This document shows, in pieces, positions 767 through 19,693 of a stretch of 23,882 nt of DNA; positions within the stretch are counted from its first letter, which is position 1; every line of letters begins with the position of its first letter. The notes beneath the pieces were generated by a model. The model made no database searches. It was not told where the DNA came from and saw nothing but the letters and a program-made list of their open reading frames with translations. The position numbers were made by a program, and so were the translations under genes. The DNA is taken from IMG/VR virus record IMGVR_UViG_2585427765_000009. The stretch is one strand, 5' to 3'. The DNA is from a virus (Duplodnaviria; Heunggongvirae; Uroviricota; Caudoviricetes).

Positions 767-1089
767 TTTTTCCAGAGGCGGTCGAACTCCGCCTTCGCAA
801 AATAAGCGGAAGCCTGGCGAAGGATATCGTTACTGCGGCGCAGTTCACGATTTTCACGTTCCAGCTCTTTCAGACGCTGACGTTCAGCGGTGGTGAGCCC
901 GCCATCACCGCCTCCGGTATCCCGCTCATGCTGGCGTACCCAGACACGCAGAGTCTCCGGTGTACAGCCAATCTTTGGGGCAATGGAACAAATTGCCGCC
1001 CACTGTGAGTCATATTCGCCCTGACTTTCCAGAACCATACGAATCGCTCTCTGACGGACTTCGGGGGAAAAACGAGTATTTTTAGTCAT
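763..1089 (-). CDS. IS3-family transposase orfA (helix-turn-helix / leucine zipper)
   Basis: 108 aa [22 protein letters not shown]...; SD AAGAGG upstream; stop overlaps orfB start. Confidence 0.85.
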
Positions 1090-1143
1090 CCTGTTTACCT
1101 CTTTCTCAGGGAGTTTAGTCTCCAGGATTCCCGGGGCGGTTCA

Positions 1144-3070
1144 GACTGTCTGGCAGCAGCAATCTGTCCTTCCACCTGTGCCTGTTGCTGACTGTACTGC
1201 AGCAATAACCGGGTGGCCTCATCATTACGGGGGTCGCGTGTTTTTTTCTTACCGGATGCCAGGGCTTTCTCGTAACGTTCATTTTCACGTTGTATCGCCG
1301 CATCCCTGACAGCCTGATCGGCGTACTGCATGGCATTAATACGCGCAATTTCACGCTGATGTCGTGCTGCTTCCGTTTCATTCATCCGGTTCAGTGCAGC
1401 ATTTTCAGCATTACGGCGTTTCTGTTGCTCCTGATAATTCCGCTCTGCCTGCTCTTTTGCATCCTGCAAATCCTTCTGGCGTTTTTTCTCCTGAAGCTCG
1501 TTAAGACGCTGCTGATCGTACTCAACCTGAGAAGATGATGCCGTCCAGGGGAGTCTTTTCGCCCGCACACTTTCTCCTGTAAAGCGGAAATCTGTTCATC
1601 CAGCGAGTCTTCACGACCAATATTCATGGCCGCATCCCAGAAACGACTCCATAAATCAGACAGATACTTCAGCGTACTGCCCAGCGCATTGAGGTTATTA
1701 TCAATATCCGCAGTACGCCGACCGGTTTCCTCTGCCAGTGCAGACATGGCTATCCGTGCCGCATCACTGGACCGCCCCTGTTCCCCAAGGACGCGTATCT
1801 GCTCAAGCTGAGTGGCAGTAAGAAAATGCAGCTCATTGTCCAGAGCCTTCGCGGCATTTACAGGATCATCCTTCAGCCGCTTAAACTGATTTATGGTATC
1901 GCTGACCGACTGGCCAACCGATCGCTCCATCTGTGCGGCAGCTCTCGCCACCATACCGATATCGTTTCCACGAAATGCACCACTCCCCACCACCTGAGCC
2001 AGCGCACCGGCTGCAGCATGTTGCGTAATACCATTCCCGGAAATAGCACGACTGAGCGTCCACAGCTGCCCGGCAGTGACTCCGGCATAATGCCCCGTCA
2101 GCGACAACTGGCGGTTAAATTCTTCCCCCTCCTTCTGACCATCATACCAGGCTTTACCCAGACCATAGACGGCCGCGGCAATACCGCCAATAACCCCGCC
2201 CAGCATCATGCCTTTCGGTGACATCAGTGTGTCTATCCATCCGGCACGGTTAGCCAGCGTTATCCCGGATCCCCTCAGCGCACCTAAATTGCCGCGAGCC
2301 AGTTCACCTATCAGAACGCCTATCTCCTGGCGGGCCGCTGCACTTTTCAGACCCAGCGAATGCGTGGCTTTTCCTGCCTGCTCCATTTTGCGGATATACA
2401 CTTCTGCAGCACTGCTTACCCCCAGCTGGGCTGCCTTGGCACGAAGCAACTCAGAAGAAGAAAGATTCTGGCGGGTTGCCTGCTCTTTAAGCTGACGGAT
2501 AAACGCCACTTTCTGTCGGGTAGCCTCTGCCTCAGCCTGCGTAAGAACACCGGTTTTCGCCGTAACCTCAGAAATCAGCGCCAGATAATCCTGCTGACCA
2601 ACCCCGCCACTGTTTCTGGCCTGTCGGATCTGCTGCTGAATACGCTGTAATTCCTGCAGCCCCGCACTGGCCTGTTTCACACTGTCAATCTGACGATAAA
2701 ACGCGGCAGCCGCTTTATCCTGAGCCTCCGCCAGAGCCATGGCCTGCGCCTGTTCCTCGCGCATTTTCTGGCTCAGTGCCTCCATACGCTGGCGGGTTTG
2801 CTCCACCTCGCGGGCCATGCGTTCATGAGCCTGTGCGCTCTTCTCCACCGTCTGCGCATGGACGGATGCGGCTGTTGCAGCCGAAGAAGCCGCCTGCATT
2901 GTCTGCCGGGCGGCCTGAGTCTGACGCTCCATAAAACGCTGCATACGGGCAGAAGACCGTTCTGCATCGCTGGCTGCACCATTCAGAAGGTTTTTGATAC
3001 GGGGAATTTCATTTTTAAACTCTGCCGCATCAATCCCCAAATCAATGACCAGGTTGGCTATCTGGTCCAT
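1144..3070 (-). pseudogene. H: Tail tape-measure protein (lambda H-like), frameshifted near 1545-1575 and truncated by the IS insertion at 1143/1144
   Basis: N-terminus MDQIANLVIDLGIDAAEFKNE resembles lambda H MAEPVGDLVVDLSLDAARF; SD GGAGGTG before ATG at 3070; coding continues in a second frame (ORF 1095..1568) that reads into the IS terminus. Confidence 0.8.
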
Positions 3071-3379: not shown

Positions 3380-3769
3380 TCAGGACTTTTCCGGCGTCAG
3401 CGCCTCATGCTCATCATCCCCGGCATTATCAATGGCCCCCATACCGCTCAGCGACAGAACCATCTCCGCCCCCGCACCCAGGGCATCATACGACCATGTT
3501 GTAATAACGGATGCGCAAAGCGTCTCTACATCCTTAGACTGATCCGCATTCCACAGTGAGCGGGAAACCAGCCAGGCATTGATATCCATCCCCATCCGCA
3601 GAAAAGCAATCTGTCGTTCAGCCTCCGGCAGTTCTCCCTCCCCGGCATCAAACTTTGCCGTTCGCTGCTGAACAAACGCCAGATATTCAATTCTCTGCAG
3701 CCCGGACAGCTCACTGAGCACCACGGACTGTTTTTCATAATTAAACGTGCCCTGTTTCAGAAACATCAT
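3380..3769 (-). CDS. G: Tail assembly chaperone (lambda G-like)
   Basis: MFLKQGTFNYEKQSVVLSELSGLQRIEYLAF matches lambda G MFLKTESFEHNGVTVTLSELSALQRIEHLAL; SD GGTGGAGA before ATG at 3769. Confidence 0.8.
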   Translation of the reverse strand: MMFLKQGTFNYEKQSVVLSELSGLQRIEYLAFVQQRTAKFDAGEGELPEAERQIAFLRMGMDINAWLVSRSLWNADQSKDVETLCASVITTWSYDALGAGAEMVLSLSGMGAIDNAGDDEHEALTPEKS

Positions 3770-3781
3770 GTTCTCCACCTG

Positions 3782-3806
3782 CAAAAAAGCCCCGGATAAC
3801 CGGGGC
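3782..3806 (-). terminator. Predicted intrinsic terminator or attenuator just downstream of major tail gene V
   Basis: Minus-strand hairpin GCCCCGG-TTAT-CCGGGGC followed by TTTTTTG. Confidence 0.5.
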
Positions 3807-3826
3807 AAATGATGAGTATCGTCCTG

Positions 3827-4570
3827 TTAACCTGCGGCGCTGACAGCCACCGCAGCCACGGCCACAAAATCGCCGTCAGAAGTCATGCCCACAATGCTGA
3901 CACTGCCCTGCTTCACGCCTTTCACCGTGGCCACAAGCCCGTTCAGGGTCACCGTGGCAGTCTGTGGATCTGTCGAATGTACACTGATCGCTTTGTCACT
4001 GGCTCCGTCAGGTTTTACTGTAAAGGTCAGCGTGGTGGTTGCTCCCACTTTTACACTGGCAGATGCTGGTGCCACCGTCAGCCCGGTAACGCTCACTGTT
4101 TCAGTGCCTTCCTCTGCCAGATGCGGACGCCCCACACCGCTGATTTTCACTGTGCGGGTCATCACGTCTTTTGAGGCAATGGTTTTACCCAGTGAGCTCA
4201 GCCAGCCACGGAAAACATCAACAGTGCCGTTGGGATATTTGATACGAAACGCGCAGACTTCACCGGAGTCGAACAACTGAACCAGTTTTTTCTGCCCGCT
4301 GTCACCCGGACGCCAGGCCAGCGTCGCCGAAGTATCACCGACGGATTTCTGCCCCTGGGTTGTCGTTTTCCAGTCTGCATCTTCATCATCGAGATAAGTG
4401 TCATCTTCTGCATCAGCGGTCATTTCGCCAGGTTGCAGATCCTTCACCATCGCAAGACGCAGCCAGTCAGTGTCCGATAAAGGGTTCGCAAACGCATCGC
4501 CCTTGCCGGTGTACATCCAGAACGTCGTTCCCGCACCTTTCGTTTTTGCCAGTGGATTTGGTGTGGTCAT
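3827..4570 (-). CDS. V: Major tail protein (lambda V-like) with C-terminal Ig-like domain
   Basis: MTTPNPLAKTKGAGTTFWMY...LDDEDADW...NGTVDVFRGW aligns with lambda V along its length; SD AAAGGAGGTG. Confidence 0.9.
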   Translation of the reverse strand: MTTPNPLAKTKGAGTTFWMYTGKGDAFANPLSDTDWLRLAMVKDLQPGEMTADAEDDTYLDDEDADWKTTTQGQKSVGDTSATLAWRPGDSGQKKLVQLFDSGEVCAFRIKYPNGTVDVFRGWLSSLGKTIASKDVMTRTVKISGVGRPHLAEEGTETVSVTGLTVAPASASVKVGATTTLTFTVKPDGASDKAISVHSTDPQTATVTLNGLVATVKGVKQGSVSIVGMTSDGDFVAVAAVAVSAAG

Positions 4571-4581
4571 TGCCACCTCCT

Positions 4582-4983
4582 TTAATTCGTGTACGTGATC
4601 TGGTACGTGATTTCCGCCATCGCCCAGGTGGCCATCTCATTATCACGTTGATAGTTAAAACCGAGAGGGATCAGGGTGTCGATGAGTCCGGAAAGTGCCG
4701 GTATATCATTCAGAGCCGGGAAAATGGTGCTCTCCATCCACATATCCAGCTCTGAATCCGGTGCCTGTGCCCGAATGAAGACAGCAATATGCAGAACAGC
4801 CTGCCAGTCATCTTCATCCGTCATTTTTCCGGTGTACTGAGCATCACTCAGCCACACCGCCACGGCAGGCAGTTCCTGCGCATCAATAAATGCCGGAAGC
4901 CCGTCAAAAAACGTGGCGCTGTCTCCACACTGTTCCCGAAGGCGTGCCAGTACGGCCTGGCGGATTTGTGTATGTCGGTTCAT
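4582..4983 (-). CDS. U: Tail terminator protein (lambda U-like)
   Basis: TFFDGLPAFIDAQELPAVAVWL...DSELDMWMES...DIPALS matches lambda U; ATGA overlap with upstream gene. Confidence 0.9.
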   Translation of the reverse strand: MNRHTQIRQAVLARLREQCGDSATFFDGLPAFIDAQELPAVAVWLSDAQYTGKMTDEDDWQAVLHIAVFIRAQAPDSELDMWMESTIFPALNDIPALSGLIDTLIPLGFNYQRDNEMATWAMAEITYQITYTN

Positions 4984-5558
4984 CGGGTCAGCCATAACCT
5001 CAGTTGTTGTTTCAGTGCATACCCCAGCTGTTTCGGCATTTCCGCAGCAATAATGCGGTCGCGGGCATCTTCAAATGCCTGTGTCAGCGGTCCGGACAGC
5101 GGGACTTTCACCACATCAATGGGGTAACGATTTTTGCCATCAATACGCCGCATCACATGCCAGCGACCATTCGCCAGTTGCTGAATAAACGCATCCCGGA
5201 AAAGATATTTACCCACCTTCAGCACACTGCCACGGTACTGCAGTTTTCCACCACGCCGGGCCAGTCTGACCCGGGCTGTCCCCAGCTTAATAGCGGGCAG
5301 ATTGCCCCGGTTAACGCGGATCCTGGCCGTCATTTTTCCTGACGGACTGGCTTTCAACACCCGGACACGCTGACGTACCAGTTTCAGGGGGATCCCTTTC
5401 ACCTGGTTATCTCCCGCAACGGTATTCCCGGCAACCTGCCGGGTGGCGACCGAGACCGCTTTCTGTGCCACACGGTTTATCGCCCATGCGCTGGCCTGTG
5501 GCACCATACGGGTATCAAGGCTGTTCAGATTACGGATGGCATTCTCAAGCCCCTTCAT
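4980..5558 (-). CDS. Z: Minor tail / head-tail joining protein (lambda Z-like)
   Basis: 192 aa; MKGLENAIRNLNSLD...GRWHVMRRIDGKNRYPIDVVK...LGYAL matches lambda Z as recalled. Confidence 0.8.
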   Translation of the reverse strand: MKGLENAIRNLNSLDTRMVPQASAWAINRVAQKAVSVATRQVAGNTVAGDNQVKGIPLKLVRQRVRVLKASPSGKMTARIRVNRGNLPAIKLGTARVRLARRGGKLQYRGSVLKVGKYLFRDAFIQQLANGRWHVMRRIDGKNRYPIDVVKVPLSGPLTQAFEDARDRIIAAEMPKQLGYALKQQLRLWLTR

Positions 5559-16036: not shown

Positions 16037-16252
16037 TTACTCTCCCCGTGCAGCCTTACGCTTGTCTTCTTTAATCTTGAAATAAAGGTTTGTCAGGTAC
16101 GTCAGCAGGCCAAATACCAGGCTACCCAGCACACCTATTGCTGCCCACTGTGAGGGCGTGACTTTATCGAGCAGCTGTAAAAACCAGTAGCCAGCACTGC
16201 CTGCGGAGGTGCCGTAGGCAATGCCTGTTGAAATTTTGTCCATGGATTTCAT
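16037..16252 (-). CDS. S: Pinholin, phage 21 S-type, dual start
   Basis: [71 protein letters not shown]; SD GGAGGTG; the ORF-track extension to 16309 is rejected. Confidence 0.9.
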
Positions 16253-16351
16253 AGCCTCACCTCCGCACGGAACGGATGGCATAGTTATTATGTGTAGGCT
16301 TCCAGACACATCAATCAGAGCCTTAATTGATATATATGCTGGAGACGATGC

Positions 16352-16503: not shown

Positions 16504-16899
16504 CTAACCTCGCATGTCAAAGCCAGATTTCTGAAAATCTCTGTAGACTTCCGGATTGTTGAAGGCCGGAAATTTGGCTTTATGAGCTGCGGACTTTATC
16601 GCTTCGCAATAGGCTTTATCACCGTTACTGGTAGATATTTTTAACGCCGTGCCATCCTGAGAGAATTCCATATGCAACCTGCATTTTTTCCCTTTCCAGT
16701 TATGCGGCTCATCAAGTTTGGCATTAATTGCAGCTCTGATTCCCCGCGCTTGCGCCCCCCATTCATCCTGATCATCCCAGCGTCCTGAACTGCAACTACC
16801 TGTAGCAGTAGTTTTGTGGCAATCTGAAGGGTGTAAAGGTGTGCATCCCGCAACAAAACCGACCCAAAAAGTCAACATAACGATTTTCTTTAATCCCAC
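16504..16899 (-). CDS. Lipoprotein with TolA domain III-like C-terminal domain (paralog 2)
   Basis: GTG start with SD GAGGAG; lipobox VAGC; C-terminal KGKKCRLHMEFSQDGTALKIS...YCEAIKSAAHKAKFPAFNNPEVYRDFQ aligns with the TolA C-terminus. Confidence 0.75.
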   Translation of the reverse strand: MGLKKIVMLTFWVGFVAGCTPLHPSDCHKTTATGSCSSGRWDDQDEWGAQARGIRAAINAKLDEPHNWKGKKCRLHMEFSQDGTALKISTSNGDKAYCEAIKSAAHKAKFPAFNNPEVYRDFQKSGFDMRG

Positions 16900-17049: not shown

Positions 17050-17478
17050 TCAGGGTTTAAAATCCAGCACCCCATTTTGAAATACTTTATATACTTCCGG
17101 CGAAGGGGGGGCAGGTATATCAGCATTCTTTATCGCATTCATCGCTTCACGACATAAATCGAGGTCTCCACTTTCTCTTTTAACCTCCAGTAGAAGGCCA
17201 TTCGGGGCCATATGCATTCTCAGTGTACACTCTTTTCCTGAATACTTACTCGCATCCCCGAACTGTTTTTCGATGGCGCTCTTGATTTGATGGGCATACA
17301 GACGGATATCCTCACTAACATCAGAAGTACGTTCAGATGAACTCACATACTGTGTCTCTATTGCTTTATCGGAGTAATATGATGTACGGTCATGATAATT
17401 TGTCGATACAGCATCAGTGCACCCGATAATAATCCCACTAATAATCAACGTAAGAATTGATGCGCTACGAAAACCCAT
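17050..17478 (-). CDS. Lipoprotein with TolA domain III-like C-terminal domain (paralog 1)
   Basis: Lipobox IIGC; QIKSAIEKQFGDASKYSGKECTLRMHMAPNGLLLEVKRESGDLDLCREAMNAIKNADIPAPPSPEVYKVFQNGVLDFKP versus TolA QIKSAIESKFYDASSYAGKTCTLRIKLAPDGMLLDIKPEGGDPALCQAALAAAKLAKIPKPPSQAVYEVFKNAPLDFKP (recalled). Confidence 0.8.
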   Translation of the reverse strand: MGFRSASILTLIISGIIIGCTDAVSTNYHDRTSYYSDKAIETQYVSSSERTSDVSEDIRLYAHQIKSAIEKQFGDASKYSGKECTLRMHMAPNGLLLEVKRESGDLDLCREAMNAIKNADIPAPPSPEVYKVFQNGVLDFKP

Positions 17479-17537: not shown

Positions 17538-18011
17538 ACAGCGAATCAGATCAAATAAAACGCACATTTGTTAACATTTACACAAAGTCTGCGTGGGATA
17601 TTCTGAAAGAATATCCATAATGTAGAGAGAATCTATTGAAGTGCATGGTGCCGGGTGCCTCCCGGTGAATTCAGTACCAGCACCTGAATCCGCGATTATC
17701 CCATATACCTACTGGCTGATTGCCCCTCCGCACAGGGGGATTCACCATGCCAGTTTCTTTTAACAAACTCCCCGCAAACCAGACAACAGTCAACCGCCTG
17801 AATTGTGAAGTATTTAAAAATTTCTCCCGCTAACTGATACCCGGCTAACAGTCTGGCGTTTTCTTTTTCAGCAACGGGAAAGCAACAACCACCACACCCG
17901 CCACCAGCACACCGTCAGCCAGCACTGACATTATCCGGCTGCTGCAATGCCATTCACAAAAACAGTAAGCAATCACTTTTTACCGTAACAGGTGATAATC
18001 CAGATATGTAT

Positions 18012-18365
18012 CTACCCCAGGTGAGTAATCCGAAGTTCATCCATACCACAGGTCCTGGCTATTCTGTTGTACTCCTGAACAAGAGCAAATAATTCTGAAT
18101 TAGCAACCATGAACTCATCGCAAACCCTCTGTATAGCATCACTATTCAGAATAATAACGTCTCTTCCCGAAAGACGATCAGGAGTACAAAACAAAACTGT
18201 CAAACGGCTGAAGGCCTTTGCTCGTGCTGCATTGACTATATCAATACGCTGCCTAAGGATGAAACACCCCGACGCCTCATCAATATTCACTCTACCCACA
18301 CCATATGAATGATAAATATTTAATGCTGAAAAAACCATTAGACGGTATAACAAACACTCAATCAA
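18012..18365 (-). CDS. Hypothetical protein in cargo locus downstream of tRNAs
   Basis: 117 aa ORF in AT-rich DNA; start uncertain (TTG 18365 or ATG 18338); no clear RBS. Confidence 0.35.
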   Translation of the reverse strand: MIECLLYRLMVFSALNIYHSYGVGRVNIDEASGCFILRQRIDIVNAARAKAFSRLTVLFCTPDRLSGRDVIILNSDAIQRVCDEFMVANSELFALVQEYNRIARTCGMDELRITHLG

Positions 18366-18475
18366 TACTTAACAGAACTTTTATTTTTGACAAACATATA
18401 ATATTTTCAACAAGATCCTGAGCCAAGTATATTTCAGTATAAGGCTCTGCCGGAAGGAATCTGGAAGAATGAATA

Positions 18476-18552
18476 TGGCGCGCTGTACTGGATTCGAACT
18501 AGTGACCGATTGCTTAGAAGGCAATTGCTCTGTCCGGCTGAGCTAACAACGC
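18476..18552 (-). tRNA. tRNA-Arg, anticodon UCU
   Basis: 77 nt cloverleaf folded by hand: acceptor GCGTTGT/ACAGCGC, D-stem GCTC/GAGC, anticodon stem ATTGC/GCAAT, loop CTTCTAA, T-loop TTCGAAT, CCA encoded. Confidence 0.8.
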
Positions 18553-18652: not shown

Positions 18653-18728
18653 TGGTGGCCCTTGCTGGATTTGAACCAGCGACCTGGCGATTATGAGTCG
18701 CTCGCTCTCACCACTGAGCTAAAGGGCC
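18653..18728 (-). tRNA. tRNA-Ile2, anticodon CAU (lysidine type; software may call it tRNA-Met)
   Basis: 76 nt; near-identical to E. coli ileX as recalled; acceptor GGCCCTT/AAGGGCC, anticodon loop CTCATAA, T-arm GCTGG-TTCAAAT-CCAGC. Confidence 0.8.
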
Positions 18729-18761: not shown

Positions 18762-18791
18762 CGCAATAAAAAACCCGCTCGGCGGCGGGTT
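18762..18791 (-). terminator. tR'-like intrinsic terminator of the late leader transcript
   Basis: Minus-strand AACCCGCCGCCGAGCGGGTT followed by TTTTTTATTG, ~45 nt downstream of the candidate pR'. Confidence 0.6.
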
Positions 18792-18838
18792 GTAGAAACT
18801 CTTCTAACGTCAGGCATAAAAAGCCCATCATTATGACG

Positions 18839-18866
18839 AATTTACCACAGATTCCGGAAAAATCAA
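18839..18866 (-). promoter_or_regulatory. Candidate late promoter pR' (with Q-utilisation region)
   Basis: Minus-strand -35 TTGATT, 16 nt spacer, -10 TAAATT (lambda pR' is TTGACT / TAAATT), immediately after the Q stop. Confidence 0.55.
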
Positions 18867-18871
18867 CCTTG

Positions 18872-19693
18872 TTACCTAGTTACCTTTTTTAACTGCCGCT
18901 CAGCCCATGCTTCTTCAATATCAAACCGGGTCACCAGCGCATCATAGAATTTCTTAACTGTTTTTTCCCATGACGCGCGTGTTATCTGGTTTGTCACCTC
19001 GCATATAGCATTAAATGCCTCCGTTGATGGTAGTCTTTCATAGCCACGACCACCACAACGCTGGCAGTCTCTGATAACAGGCATACCACGTTTTACCGAC
19101 TCTTCACGGTGAATGGCGACACCACGCCCACGGCAATCCTTACAGGCGGTGGAAACCTCACCCTTTCCGCCACACTCCGGACAGGCAACTTTTACCACCT
19201 CCCTGACTTTTTTCCATTCTTCCCAGTAAGACGGATACACACCTTTCGTACACTTTGCCCATACCGGCGGCTTACCATCCGGATACTGGACCTTGTTTGT
19301 AAAAACTACGCTTTCAATAAATTTTTCCCCATAGCAACAAGGGCACTGCTTTTTACTCGCTGCGCTGCGGGCATAATCCTCAAAAGCGTACGAAGCCATA
19401 ATGCGCATCACTACCGGTTTTATTTCTGCCGGAAGTTTTCTCAACGCCGCCACACGATCGCACCGACTGAGTGCATAATCTGCCAGTAATTCTGTTGCCC
19501 GCGCCCTGTCATTCATACTGATGCCCATTTTCCCCAGGAACGCAGAAAACCCCATCTCAGCCCGATTCTGTGTCATGCCCTGCGCGGCCATCACATCAGT
19601 GATACTCAGCGCATCTTTTGACGTTGAGGCCGATGCATCGGTCAGGCAAGGGGATTTTGGGGAGTAGTATTTCGGTAAATCTTCCAGTTTCAT
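18872..19693 (-). CDS. Late-gene antiterminator, Q-like (Cys-rich, zinc-binding type)
   Basis: Position between rusA and pR'/tR'; CxxC clusters CPCC, CPECGGKG, CKDCRGRG, CQRCGGRG; ATGA overlap with rusA stop. Confidence 0.65.
   Translation of the reverse strand: MKLEDLPKYYSPKSPCLTDASASTSKDALSITDVMAAQGMTQNRAEMGFSAFLGKMGISMNDRARATELLADYALSRCDRVAALRKLPAEIKPVVMRIMASYAFEDYARSAASKKQCPCCYGEKFIESVVFTNKVQYPDGKPPVWAKCTKGVYPSYWEEWKKVREVVKVACPECGGKGEVSTACKDCRGRGVAIHREESVKRGMPVIRDCQRCGGRGYERLPSTEAFNAICEVTNQITRASWEKTVKKFYDALVTRFDIEEAWAERQLKKVTR

Follow-up and report, generated by a model that had tools for sequence, protein, structure and literature searches.

What occupies the position directly behind the tRNA genes of a lambdoid prophage when it is not a Shiga toxin gene, and is the reading frame found there a gene at all? 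The question is raised by a stretch of viral DNA of 23,882 nucleotides (the window), which corresponds to the part of a Qin/lambdoid-type E. coli prophage concerned with late regulation and lysis, the minus strand being the reading strand. In the direction of reading, genes for a DUF968 protein, RusA and the antitermination protein Q and a GC-rich hairpin with a T-run precede two tRNA genes; the frame at issue comes next, and past it lie a DUF3927/TciB-like gene, the STnc100 sRNA, two TolA-C lipoprotein genes, a P21-type holin gene, DUF1327, lysozyme and Rz.

A stop-free frame of 117 codons exists exactly as a sequence-only reading of this DNA had described it, running on the minus strand from TTG 18365 to the TAG at 18012-18014, but the 5' end drawn for it is probably wrong, the conserved start being GTG 18290, with a product of 92 aa. 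It is the first ORF past tRNA-Ile2(CAT) and tRNA-Arg(UCU), downstream of Q. We distinguish the following parts:

18012..18290, minus strand: very probable protein-coding gene of 92 codons plus TAG (GTG 18290 start; 279 nt kept in three clades; phrog_2873; AlphaFold2 model)
18291..18365, minus strand: 5' extension of 25 codons (TTG 18365, ATG 18338), most likely an untranslated leader and not coding
18294..18299, minus strand: weak Shine-Dalgarno-like GTGGGT, 3 nt before GTG 18290 (the homologous position carries Shine-Dalgarno sequences in relatives)

The gene was judged real because of its conservation and not because of the length of its ORF, which lies within chance, since at least 118 open codons also turned up in 138 of 1000 shuffled versions of the 2.2-kb cargo region (~14%). 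When representatives of three E. coli clades were compared, namely the window type, RM10042 (L004) and ETEC4079 (L005), the stretch from GTG to stop measured exactly 279 nt in each, free of indels at 68-72% DNA identity, and homology faded within ~20 nt upstream of the GTG and directly past the stop. Nei-Gojobori dN/dS among the three was 0.26-0.30, third codon positions differed about twice as much as positions 1 and 2, and the cross-clade substitutions were conservative. Moreover, the 92-codon frame was the only one of six open in all three clades, each of the other five (on both strands) having stops in at least one; for the antisense frame that shares its wobble positions, dN/dS was low, as is to be expected, yet the window has two stops in it. 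Near-identical copies, 80 from IMG/VR and one from an E. coli genome, were intact in 81 of 81 cases, and their variable sites were least dense in the core (3.2 per 100 nt vs 5-15 in the flanks). In ETEC4079, PGAP calls the 92-aa protein (WP_001017777.1). That the frame is a chance opening in AT-rich non-coding cargo DNA, from which no protein is made, would agree with an ORF length reached by 13.8% of shuffles, with the weak Shine-Dalgarno sequence and non-ATG start, and with the lack of a PGAP feature beneath the match in nearly every RefSeq genome listed. Such a reading is nonetheless extremely improbable in view of that dN/dS and the absence of indels over 92 codons at ~30% DNA divergence, of 20-43% identical homologues in other genera with the same length and good Shine-Dalgarno sequences, and of the intactness of all 81 copies. 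Two further candidates were rejected: an antisense ORF of 67 aa at 18109..18312 (plus strand), which had no family match, and a pseudogene fragment, relatives in six genera all being 91-99 aa long. The reading frame, whose conservation in related prophages had been proposed as the check on the ORF, is strongly kept in related and distant prophages alike, and with gene, family, position and fold taken jointly we consider it highly probable that the 92-codon gene is genuine.

With comparable confidence, sequence comparison places the start at GTG 18290, for a product of 92 rather than 117 aa, because several lines of evidence converge there. Stop codons lie 6-10 codons upstream of the shared GTG in both RM10042 and ETEC4079, which means that neither the TTG nor the ATG of the window can be the ancestral start. 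The extension is 30.7% GC, close to the tRNA-to-gene spacer (31.4%) and below the core (44.1%). Its amino-acid-changing polymorphisms are 4/4 nonsynonymous, and its density of variable sites is ~2x that of the core. No Shine-Dalgarno sequence was found before TTG 18365 or ATG 18338. Finally, the distant relatives all start at the equivalent of the GTG, with good Shine-Dalgarno sequences; the homologous position carries AGGAGT in ETEC4079, AAGGA in Serratia and Morganella and AGGGA in Citrobacter (normal spacing), whereas the window copy is degenerate (GTGGGT only). Given this poor Shine-Dalgarno sequence and the GTG start, translation of the window copy may be weak. Within the window-type clade the ATG at 18338, which precedes the GTG by 16 codons, is conserved; PHROG and many gene callers start there. 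A longer protein, either as drawn (117 aa from TTG 18365) or in a 108-aa form from ATG 18338, could appeal to a frame that is open and an ATG that is present in 65 of 65 colinear window-type copies, to a phrog_2873 profile that begins at this ATG and to 108-aa NCBI records such as WP_097292279.1; set against the stops that interrupt the extension in the other two clades, its spacer-like composition, its exclusively nonsynonymous coding changes, the missing Shine-Dalgarno sequence before either codon and the beginning of all distant relatives at the GTG position, it is unlikely. The caution already voiced about expression of the ORF as drawn was well placed, neither the TTG nor the ATG being conserved and the GTG 25 codons downstream being so. 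Read from this GTG, the product of the 92-codon gene is VNIDEASGC...RITHLG, a peptide predicted from this start being (M/V)NIDEASGCFILR.

The ORF had been regarded as an orphan without recognisable motifs, of which the second part held and the first did not. Pfam and NCBIfam scans of the ORF gave nothing significant (the sole Pfam line, RHIM, had E 0.093 and 12.8 bits, below cut-off), a Pfam scan of all 21 family members gave scattered chance matches only, and no family of the PADLOC defence models matched the ORF at E <= 1. By contrast with an orphan, it matched phrog_2873 (PHROGs v4) end to end (E 3.8e-70, 233.9 bits, residues 10-117 on positions 1-108 of a 108-position profile), with phrog_4827 as a distant match (E 4e-5), both annotated 'unknown function'. 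With blastn, the ORF DNA was found in 1314 of 5426 complete E. coli genomes, of which 1185 were at least 95% identical and 128 were 60-80% identical, and in almost all RefSeq records listed there was no annotated feature (PGAP) under the match. An exhaustive HMM search of 1.84 billion representative proteins yielded 20 clusters at E <= 0.001, and a profile search of a 5.8-billion protein set yielded 40 at E <= 0.01 (91-110 aa), which come from E. coli/Shigella, Citrobacter, Salmonella, Serratia, Morganella and Xenorhabdus, so that relatives exist in five other genera; those outside E. coli are 20-43% identical. Source names of the clusters were all "hypothetical protein", bar one stray automatic UniRef label, "GGDEF domain-containing protein". 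A literature search returned no paper naming phrog_2873, phrog_4827 or WP_001017777, and a general one on Q/tRNA/holin morons returned nothing specific. A scan of genome contigs found 3 loci only, and the Serratia-type subfamily was represented in IMG/VR by only 2 loci. The family is a narrow, uncharacterised one of 91-99-residue proteins restricted to Enterobacterales phages, already catalogued and poorly annotated in RefSeq. One 62%-identical homologue lies at 1039..1314 of a 2.7-kb contig (L022) from a MAG labelled Bacillota, a label that is probably a binning artefact, with enterobacterial phage DNA mis-binned.

Where these genes sit bears on how they might be expressed. The elements that define the position in the window are:

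18872..19693, minus strand: antitermination protein Q, 273 aa, with a DnaJ-type zinc-finger region (PF03589, E 6.2e-55; RefSeq)
18772..18791, minus strand: GC-rich hairpin with T-run, at the position of a tR'-type terminator (terminator scan)
18653..18728, minus strand: tRNA with CAT anticodon (ARAGORN, Rfam, PGAP)
18476..18552, minus strand: tRNA-Arg (anticodon UCU), transcribed in the same direction (ARAGORN; Rfam tRNA, 62.5 bits)
18366..18475, minus strand: AT-rich spacer from tRNA-Arg to the gene, with promoter-like hexamers (promoter scan)
16037..16309, minus strand: holin, on the same strand as Q and the gene

The CAT-anticodon tRNA is called Met by ARAGORN and tRNA-Ile by PGAP, and its counterpart in an annotated Stx2 phage record is ileZ. 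That the ORF takes the place of stxA, as had been proposed, is corroborated by the tRNA block: more than 170 Stx2 phages have an ileZ-argN-argO block 86-88% identical to it, and there stx2A begins 92 nt after argO, the last tRNA gene. From this shared slot, Q-dependent expression is to be expected. The gene lies between Q and holin in the window, all three on the minus strand, and holds the same Q-to-holin position in ETEC4079, Citrobacter, Serratia, Morganella, Salmonella, a metagenomic phage and an IMG/VR phage, where the upstream flank is the Q antiterminator or the methyltransferase that follows Q. Exceptions are Xenorhabdus, with a Mu-like tail region beside an IS, and a plasmid clade. 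The relatives have Q proteins from three families and holins from at least three, so that what stays constant is the slot and not any particular partner. The 117-codon ORF is 41.2% GC compared to 50.4% for the whole window, which, with its place in the Q-to-lysis slot, agrees with its earlier description as AT-rich accessory cargo: the 92-codon gene is optional accessory cargo in the Q-to-lysis slot of temperate lambdoid phages, typically the first protein gene past the tRNAs.

Six contexts have tRNA genes no more than 700 nt upstream (the window, Serratia, Morganella L019, Salmonella, the metagenomic phage and the plasmid clade), and the flanks examined in four others contained none (ETEC4079, Morganella L018, Xenorhabdus L104 and L110). 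In the plasmid clade (L007-L010, E. coli contigs, 4347..5276), a 34%-identical copy lies beside tRNA-Thr(UGU) on Rep3 plasmids with a K88-type fimbrial operon, an arrangement suggesting that ETEC-type plasmids captured a fragment of phage origin comprising tRNA and gene. A function tied to the adjacent phage tRNAs, for example in shielding or exploiting them against host nucleases that target tRNAs, could be read from the six contexts, the plasmid clade included. We regard it as very unlikely, given that tRNAs and gene share one well-known cargo slot downstream of Q, that tRNA identities vary (Ile2/Arg, Thr/Gly, Met/Gly, Asn), that four contexts have no tRNA in the flanks examined, and that the product lacks both a basic character and an RNA-binding signature.

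Between Q and the gene, the only terminator-like site is that at 18791..18772, upstream of the tRNAs, with no other convincing one, and the terminator scan found none between the gene and the DUF3927 gene. A terminator-like hairpin within the ORF (18176..18158; 7 pairs, 3 of them G-C) lies inside conserved coding sequence and was treated as chance. From its position, we infer that the gene is transcribed mainly with the late genes and in dependence on Q. Q would be the likely activator, in that RNA polymerase modified by it would read through the tR'-like terminator and the tRNAs into the gene, the tR' terminator having the role it has in lambdoid late-operon architecture; translation of the window copy would then proceed from the weak Shine-Dalgarno sequence and the GTG start. 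In the Q-to-tRNA interval (18765..18871, minus strand) Rfam also scored isrK at 18.1 bits and Trp_leader at 25.6 bits, both below threshold, and the Salmonella relative L105 has a bona fide isrK (76 bits) at the same place. The strong intrinsic terminator in this interval fits, by analogy, a short, terminated leader RNA initiated at PR', for which lambda 6S and StxS are the comparison.

The spacer contains promoter-like hexamers (TTGGCT-17-TATTAT, 18426..18398, score 9/12) that are polymorphic, most copies having CTGGCT, and judged from these letters a lysogen promoter in the spacer is possible. The gene could accordingly be pictured as a classical moron with a promoter of its own, active in the lysogen or on the plasmid and conferring a defence, exclusion or anti-defence benefit independent of the lytic cycle. 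Its AT-richness relative to its neighbours, the hexamers and the retention of an intact clade on Rep3/K88-fimbrial plasmids, where Q cannot act, speak for such a moron, and some members need their own promoter because the plasmid-borne clade cannot depend on Q. With the hexamers polymorphic, no terminator past the gene and no PADLOC defence match, however, we hold it to be rather unlikely for the gene at large, and retain Q-dependent late transcription as the preferred reading.

Downstream of the gene, three elements of the late region precede the holin:

17845..17976, minus strand: DUF3927/TciB-like small membrane protein, 43 aa, 35 nt past the stop of the gene (phrog_1470, E 7.8e-13; RefSeq)
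17587..17779, minus strand: full-length STnc100 sRNA (Rfam RF02076, 112.9 bits vs a gathering score of 47)
17050..17478 and 16504..16899, minus strand: TolA C-terminal-domain proteins, two paralogues (PF06519, E 2e-23 and 1e-14)

The DUF3927 gene may be co-transcribed with the 92-codon gene. It is found 35 nt downstream in the window and mEp460 type and one gene further in Citrobacter, and is absent in Serratia, Morganella, Salmonella, ETEC4079 and the plasmids. PGAP calls it with 43 or 28 aa depending on the genome, and in Citrobacter it follows the ORF homologue after a TerB-like gene, a pair that presumably recalls tciA-tciB of phage P1. STnc100 comes after the DUF3927 gene and ahead of the first of the TolA-like lipoprotein genes, where RefSeq has only a partial pseudo-CDS on the opposite strand. 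RM10042 has five STnc100 copies in one prophage late region (1666..1878 and 3637..4616; 119-172 bits each), four of them in tandem right after the ORF homologue, as an sRNA array in the stx slot. A 2026 preprint (10.64898/2026.05.13.724894) links STnc100 with the prophage sRNA PasD. As to the TolA-C paralogues, their N-termini resemble lipoprotein signal peptides by eye (…IIGC, …VAGC), and RefSeq lists the first of the two genes as a truncated pseudogene ('missing N-terminus'), yet its 142-aa ORF is complete and starts with ATG.

It had also been suggested that the product may work with the TolA-like lipoproteins, with which it would form an envelope-directed module. Both paralogues lie on the same strand and in the same cargo block as the gene in the window and in mEp460_ev081, and RM10042 has a tolA-like gene in the same region. 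We found little else to sustain the suggestion, RM10042 being the one divergent context with a TolA-C gene nearby, and there the gene is not adjacent, lying upstream with other genes between. No TolA-C gene was found near the homologues in ETEC4079, Citrobacter, Salmonella, Serratia, Morganella or Xenorhabdus, nor in two metagenomic/viral phage contigs or the plasmid clade, and in the window the DUF3927 gene and STnc100 intervene. Moreover, the product has neither signal peptide nor membrane segment and therefore would not share the envelope with the lipoproteins, so that a joint module is highly unlikely.

The 92-aa product, in which no signal peptide or membrane segment was identified, has a near-neutral pI of 5.7 and a maximal Kyte-Doolittle value of 0.94 over 19-residue windows, and from its sequence is predicted to be soluble and cytoplasmic. 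AlphaFold2, with a shallow alignment of 21 sequences, modelled it as an antiparallel two-helix coiled-coil hairpin (pLDDT 88.3, pTM 0.75), in which a 15-residue loop (CTPDRLSGRDVIILN) joins helices 3-34 and 50-81 and a short C-terminal tail comes after helix 2. Both helices show periodic conservation, the helical conservation moment of helix 1 being reached by 0 of 5000 shuffles and that of helix 2 by 2.2%, and the conserved residues lie on one face of each helix. The most conserved are C9, L12, R23, F27 and F34 in helix 1 and N64, L67, V71, Y74, N75 and A78 in helix 2. In the model, the two conserved faces presumably pack together in antiparallel register, which would set the invariant polar residues R23, N64 and N75 in or beside the core as the only candidate for a functional or register-defining site. 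Remote-homology search and structure prediction, proposed earlier as a further check, thus supplied a family and a helical hairpin but fold matches that were generic and gave no functional lead. The closest Foldseek matches in the PDB were coiled-coil arms of proteins such as EmrA and prefoldin (best E 0.088), and those of the BFVD fold search were uncharacterised hairpins (best E 0.18), the fold matches overall being only generic coiled-coil hairpins and designed helical bundles. No match of the family profile to PDB sequences was significant, the best being GapR/UPF0335 (E 0.11), with Rop at a non-significant E of 0.75.

Because no enzymatic, membrane or nucleic-acid-binding signature was found, binding is the most economical mechanism. 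We tentatively propose, on the strength of the model, that the product might act by binding either to itself, as a Rop-like bundle, or to a cytoplasmic partner of host or phage, a proposal we rate below even. Its role would be accessory and late (modulating the host, countering defence or timing lysis) and not that of a toxin, an envelope protein or a TolA-like partner. Among specific roles, a cytoplasmic regulator of lysis timing could be envisaged along the lines of RIII of phage T4, a small cytoplasmic antiholin. The product is predicted to be likewise small, soluble and helical, and in Serratia, Morganella, the metagenomic phage and the IMG/VR phage the gene lies ~100-250 nt upstream of the first gene of the lysis cassette. 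Against this, the neighbouring holins are unrelated (holin_2_1, holin_3_1, holin_8/3_7) and show no co-variation, 1.7 kb and four other genes or RNAs separate the gene from the holin in the window, the plasmid clade has no lysis genes, and no sequence relation to any lysis protein was found; control of lysis timing is therefore decidedly unlikely. We infer a ranking in which a general accessory, host-modulating or anti-defence role comes before lysis timing, lysis timing before a tRNA-linked function, and this before cooperation with TolA-like proteins. More speculatively, and with low expectation, the family might represent an unrecognised class of small coiled-coil hairpins that accompany phage tRNAs in the first part of the Q-dependent late transcript, keep company with a tRNA even on plasmids, and have a specific target in the host; such a class could, for example, neutralise a tRNA-directed or late-acting host defence, or tune lysis.

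As conserved hypothetical phage proteins go, the window product is ordinary and its fold generic; it is of interest chiefly for how common the gene is and for where it lies, the stx slot. About one quarter of complete E. coli genomes carry the gene in a prophage slot that elsewhere holds Shiga toxin; RefSeq hardly ever gives it a feature, and it falls in no curated family. With its boundaries corrected to 92 aa from a GTG start and purifying selection shown, what was a gap in annotation becomes a small-protein gene open to testing. If a target were found, it would add one more late-expressed phage accessory protein, and if the hairpins did form a class of their own, the stx slot of non-Stx prophages would be functionally meaningful in about a quarter of E. 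coli genomes.

Among known systems, phrog_2873 has the same size class and the same phage origin as the window gene, with the difference that its profile takes in 16 N-terminal residues that the cross-clade comparison indicates to be untranslated. Rop/ROM-type proteins are helical hairpins that dimerise into four-helix bundles, and they serve as a comparison for the bundle that the window product might form. T4 RIII is likewise a small soluble helical phage protein, and several relatives of the window gene sit with or near lysis genes; no homology between the two is shown, however, and the window gene stands apart from the holin. Shiga toxin is a 319-aa secreted N-glycosidase with a B pentamer, whereas the window product is predicted to be a 92-aa helical hairpin without a signal peptide, and a search for a relation to RIP N-glycosidases or Stx gave no Pfam match, no fold relation and no hydrophobic N-terminus. 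The two have only genomic position in common, the order of Q, terminator, ileZ/arg-type tRNAs and cargo gene being that of the Stx-converting lambdoid phages.
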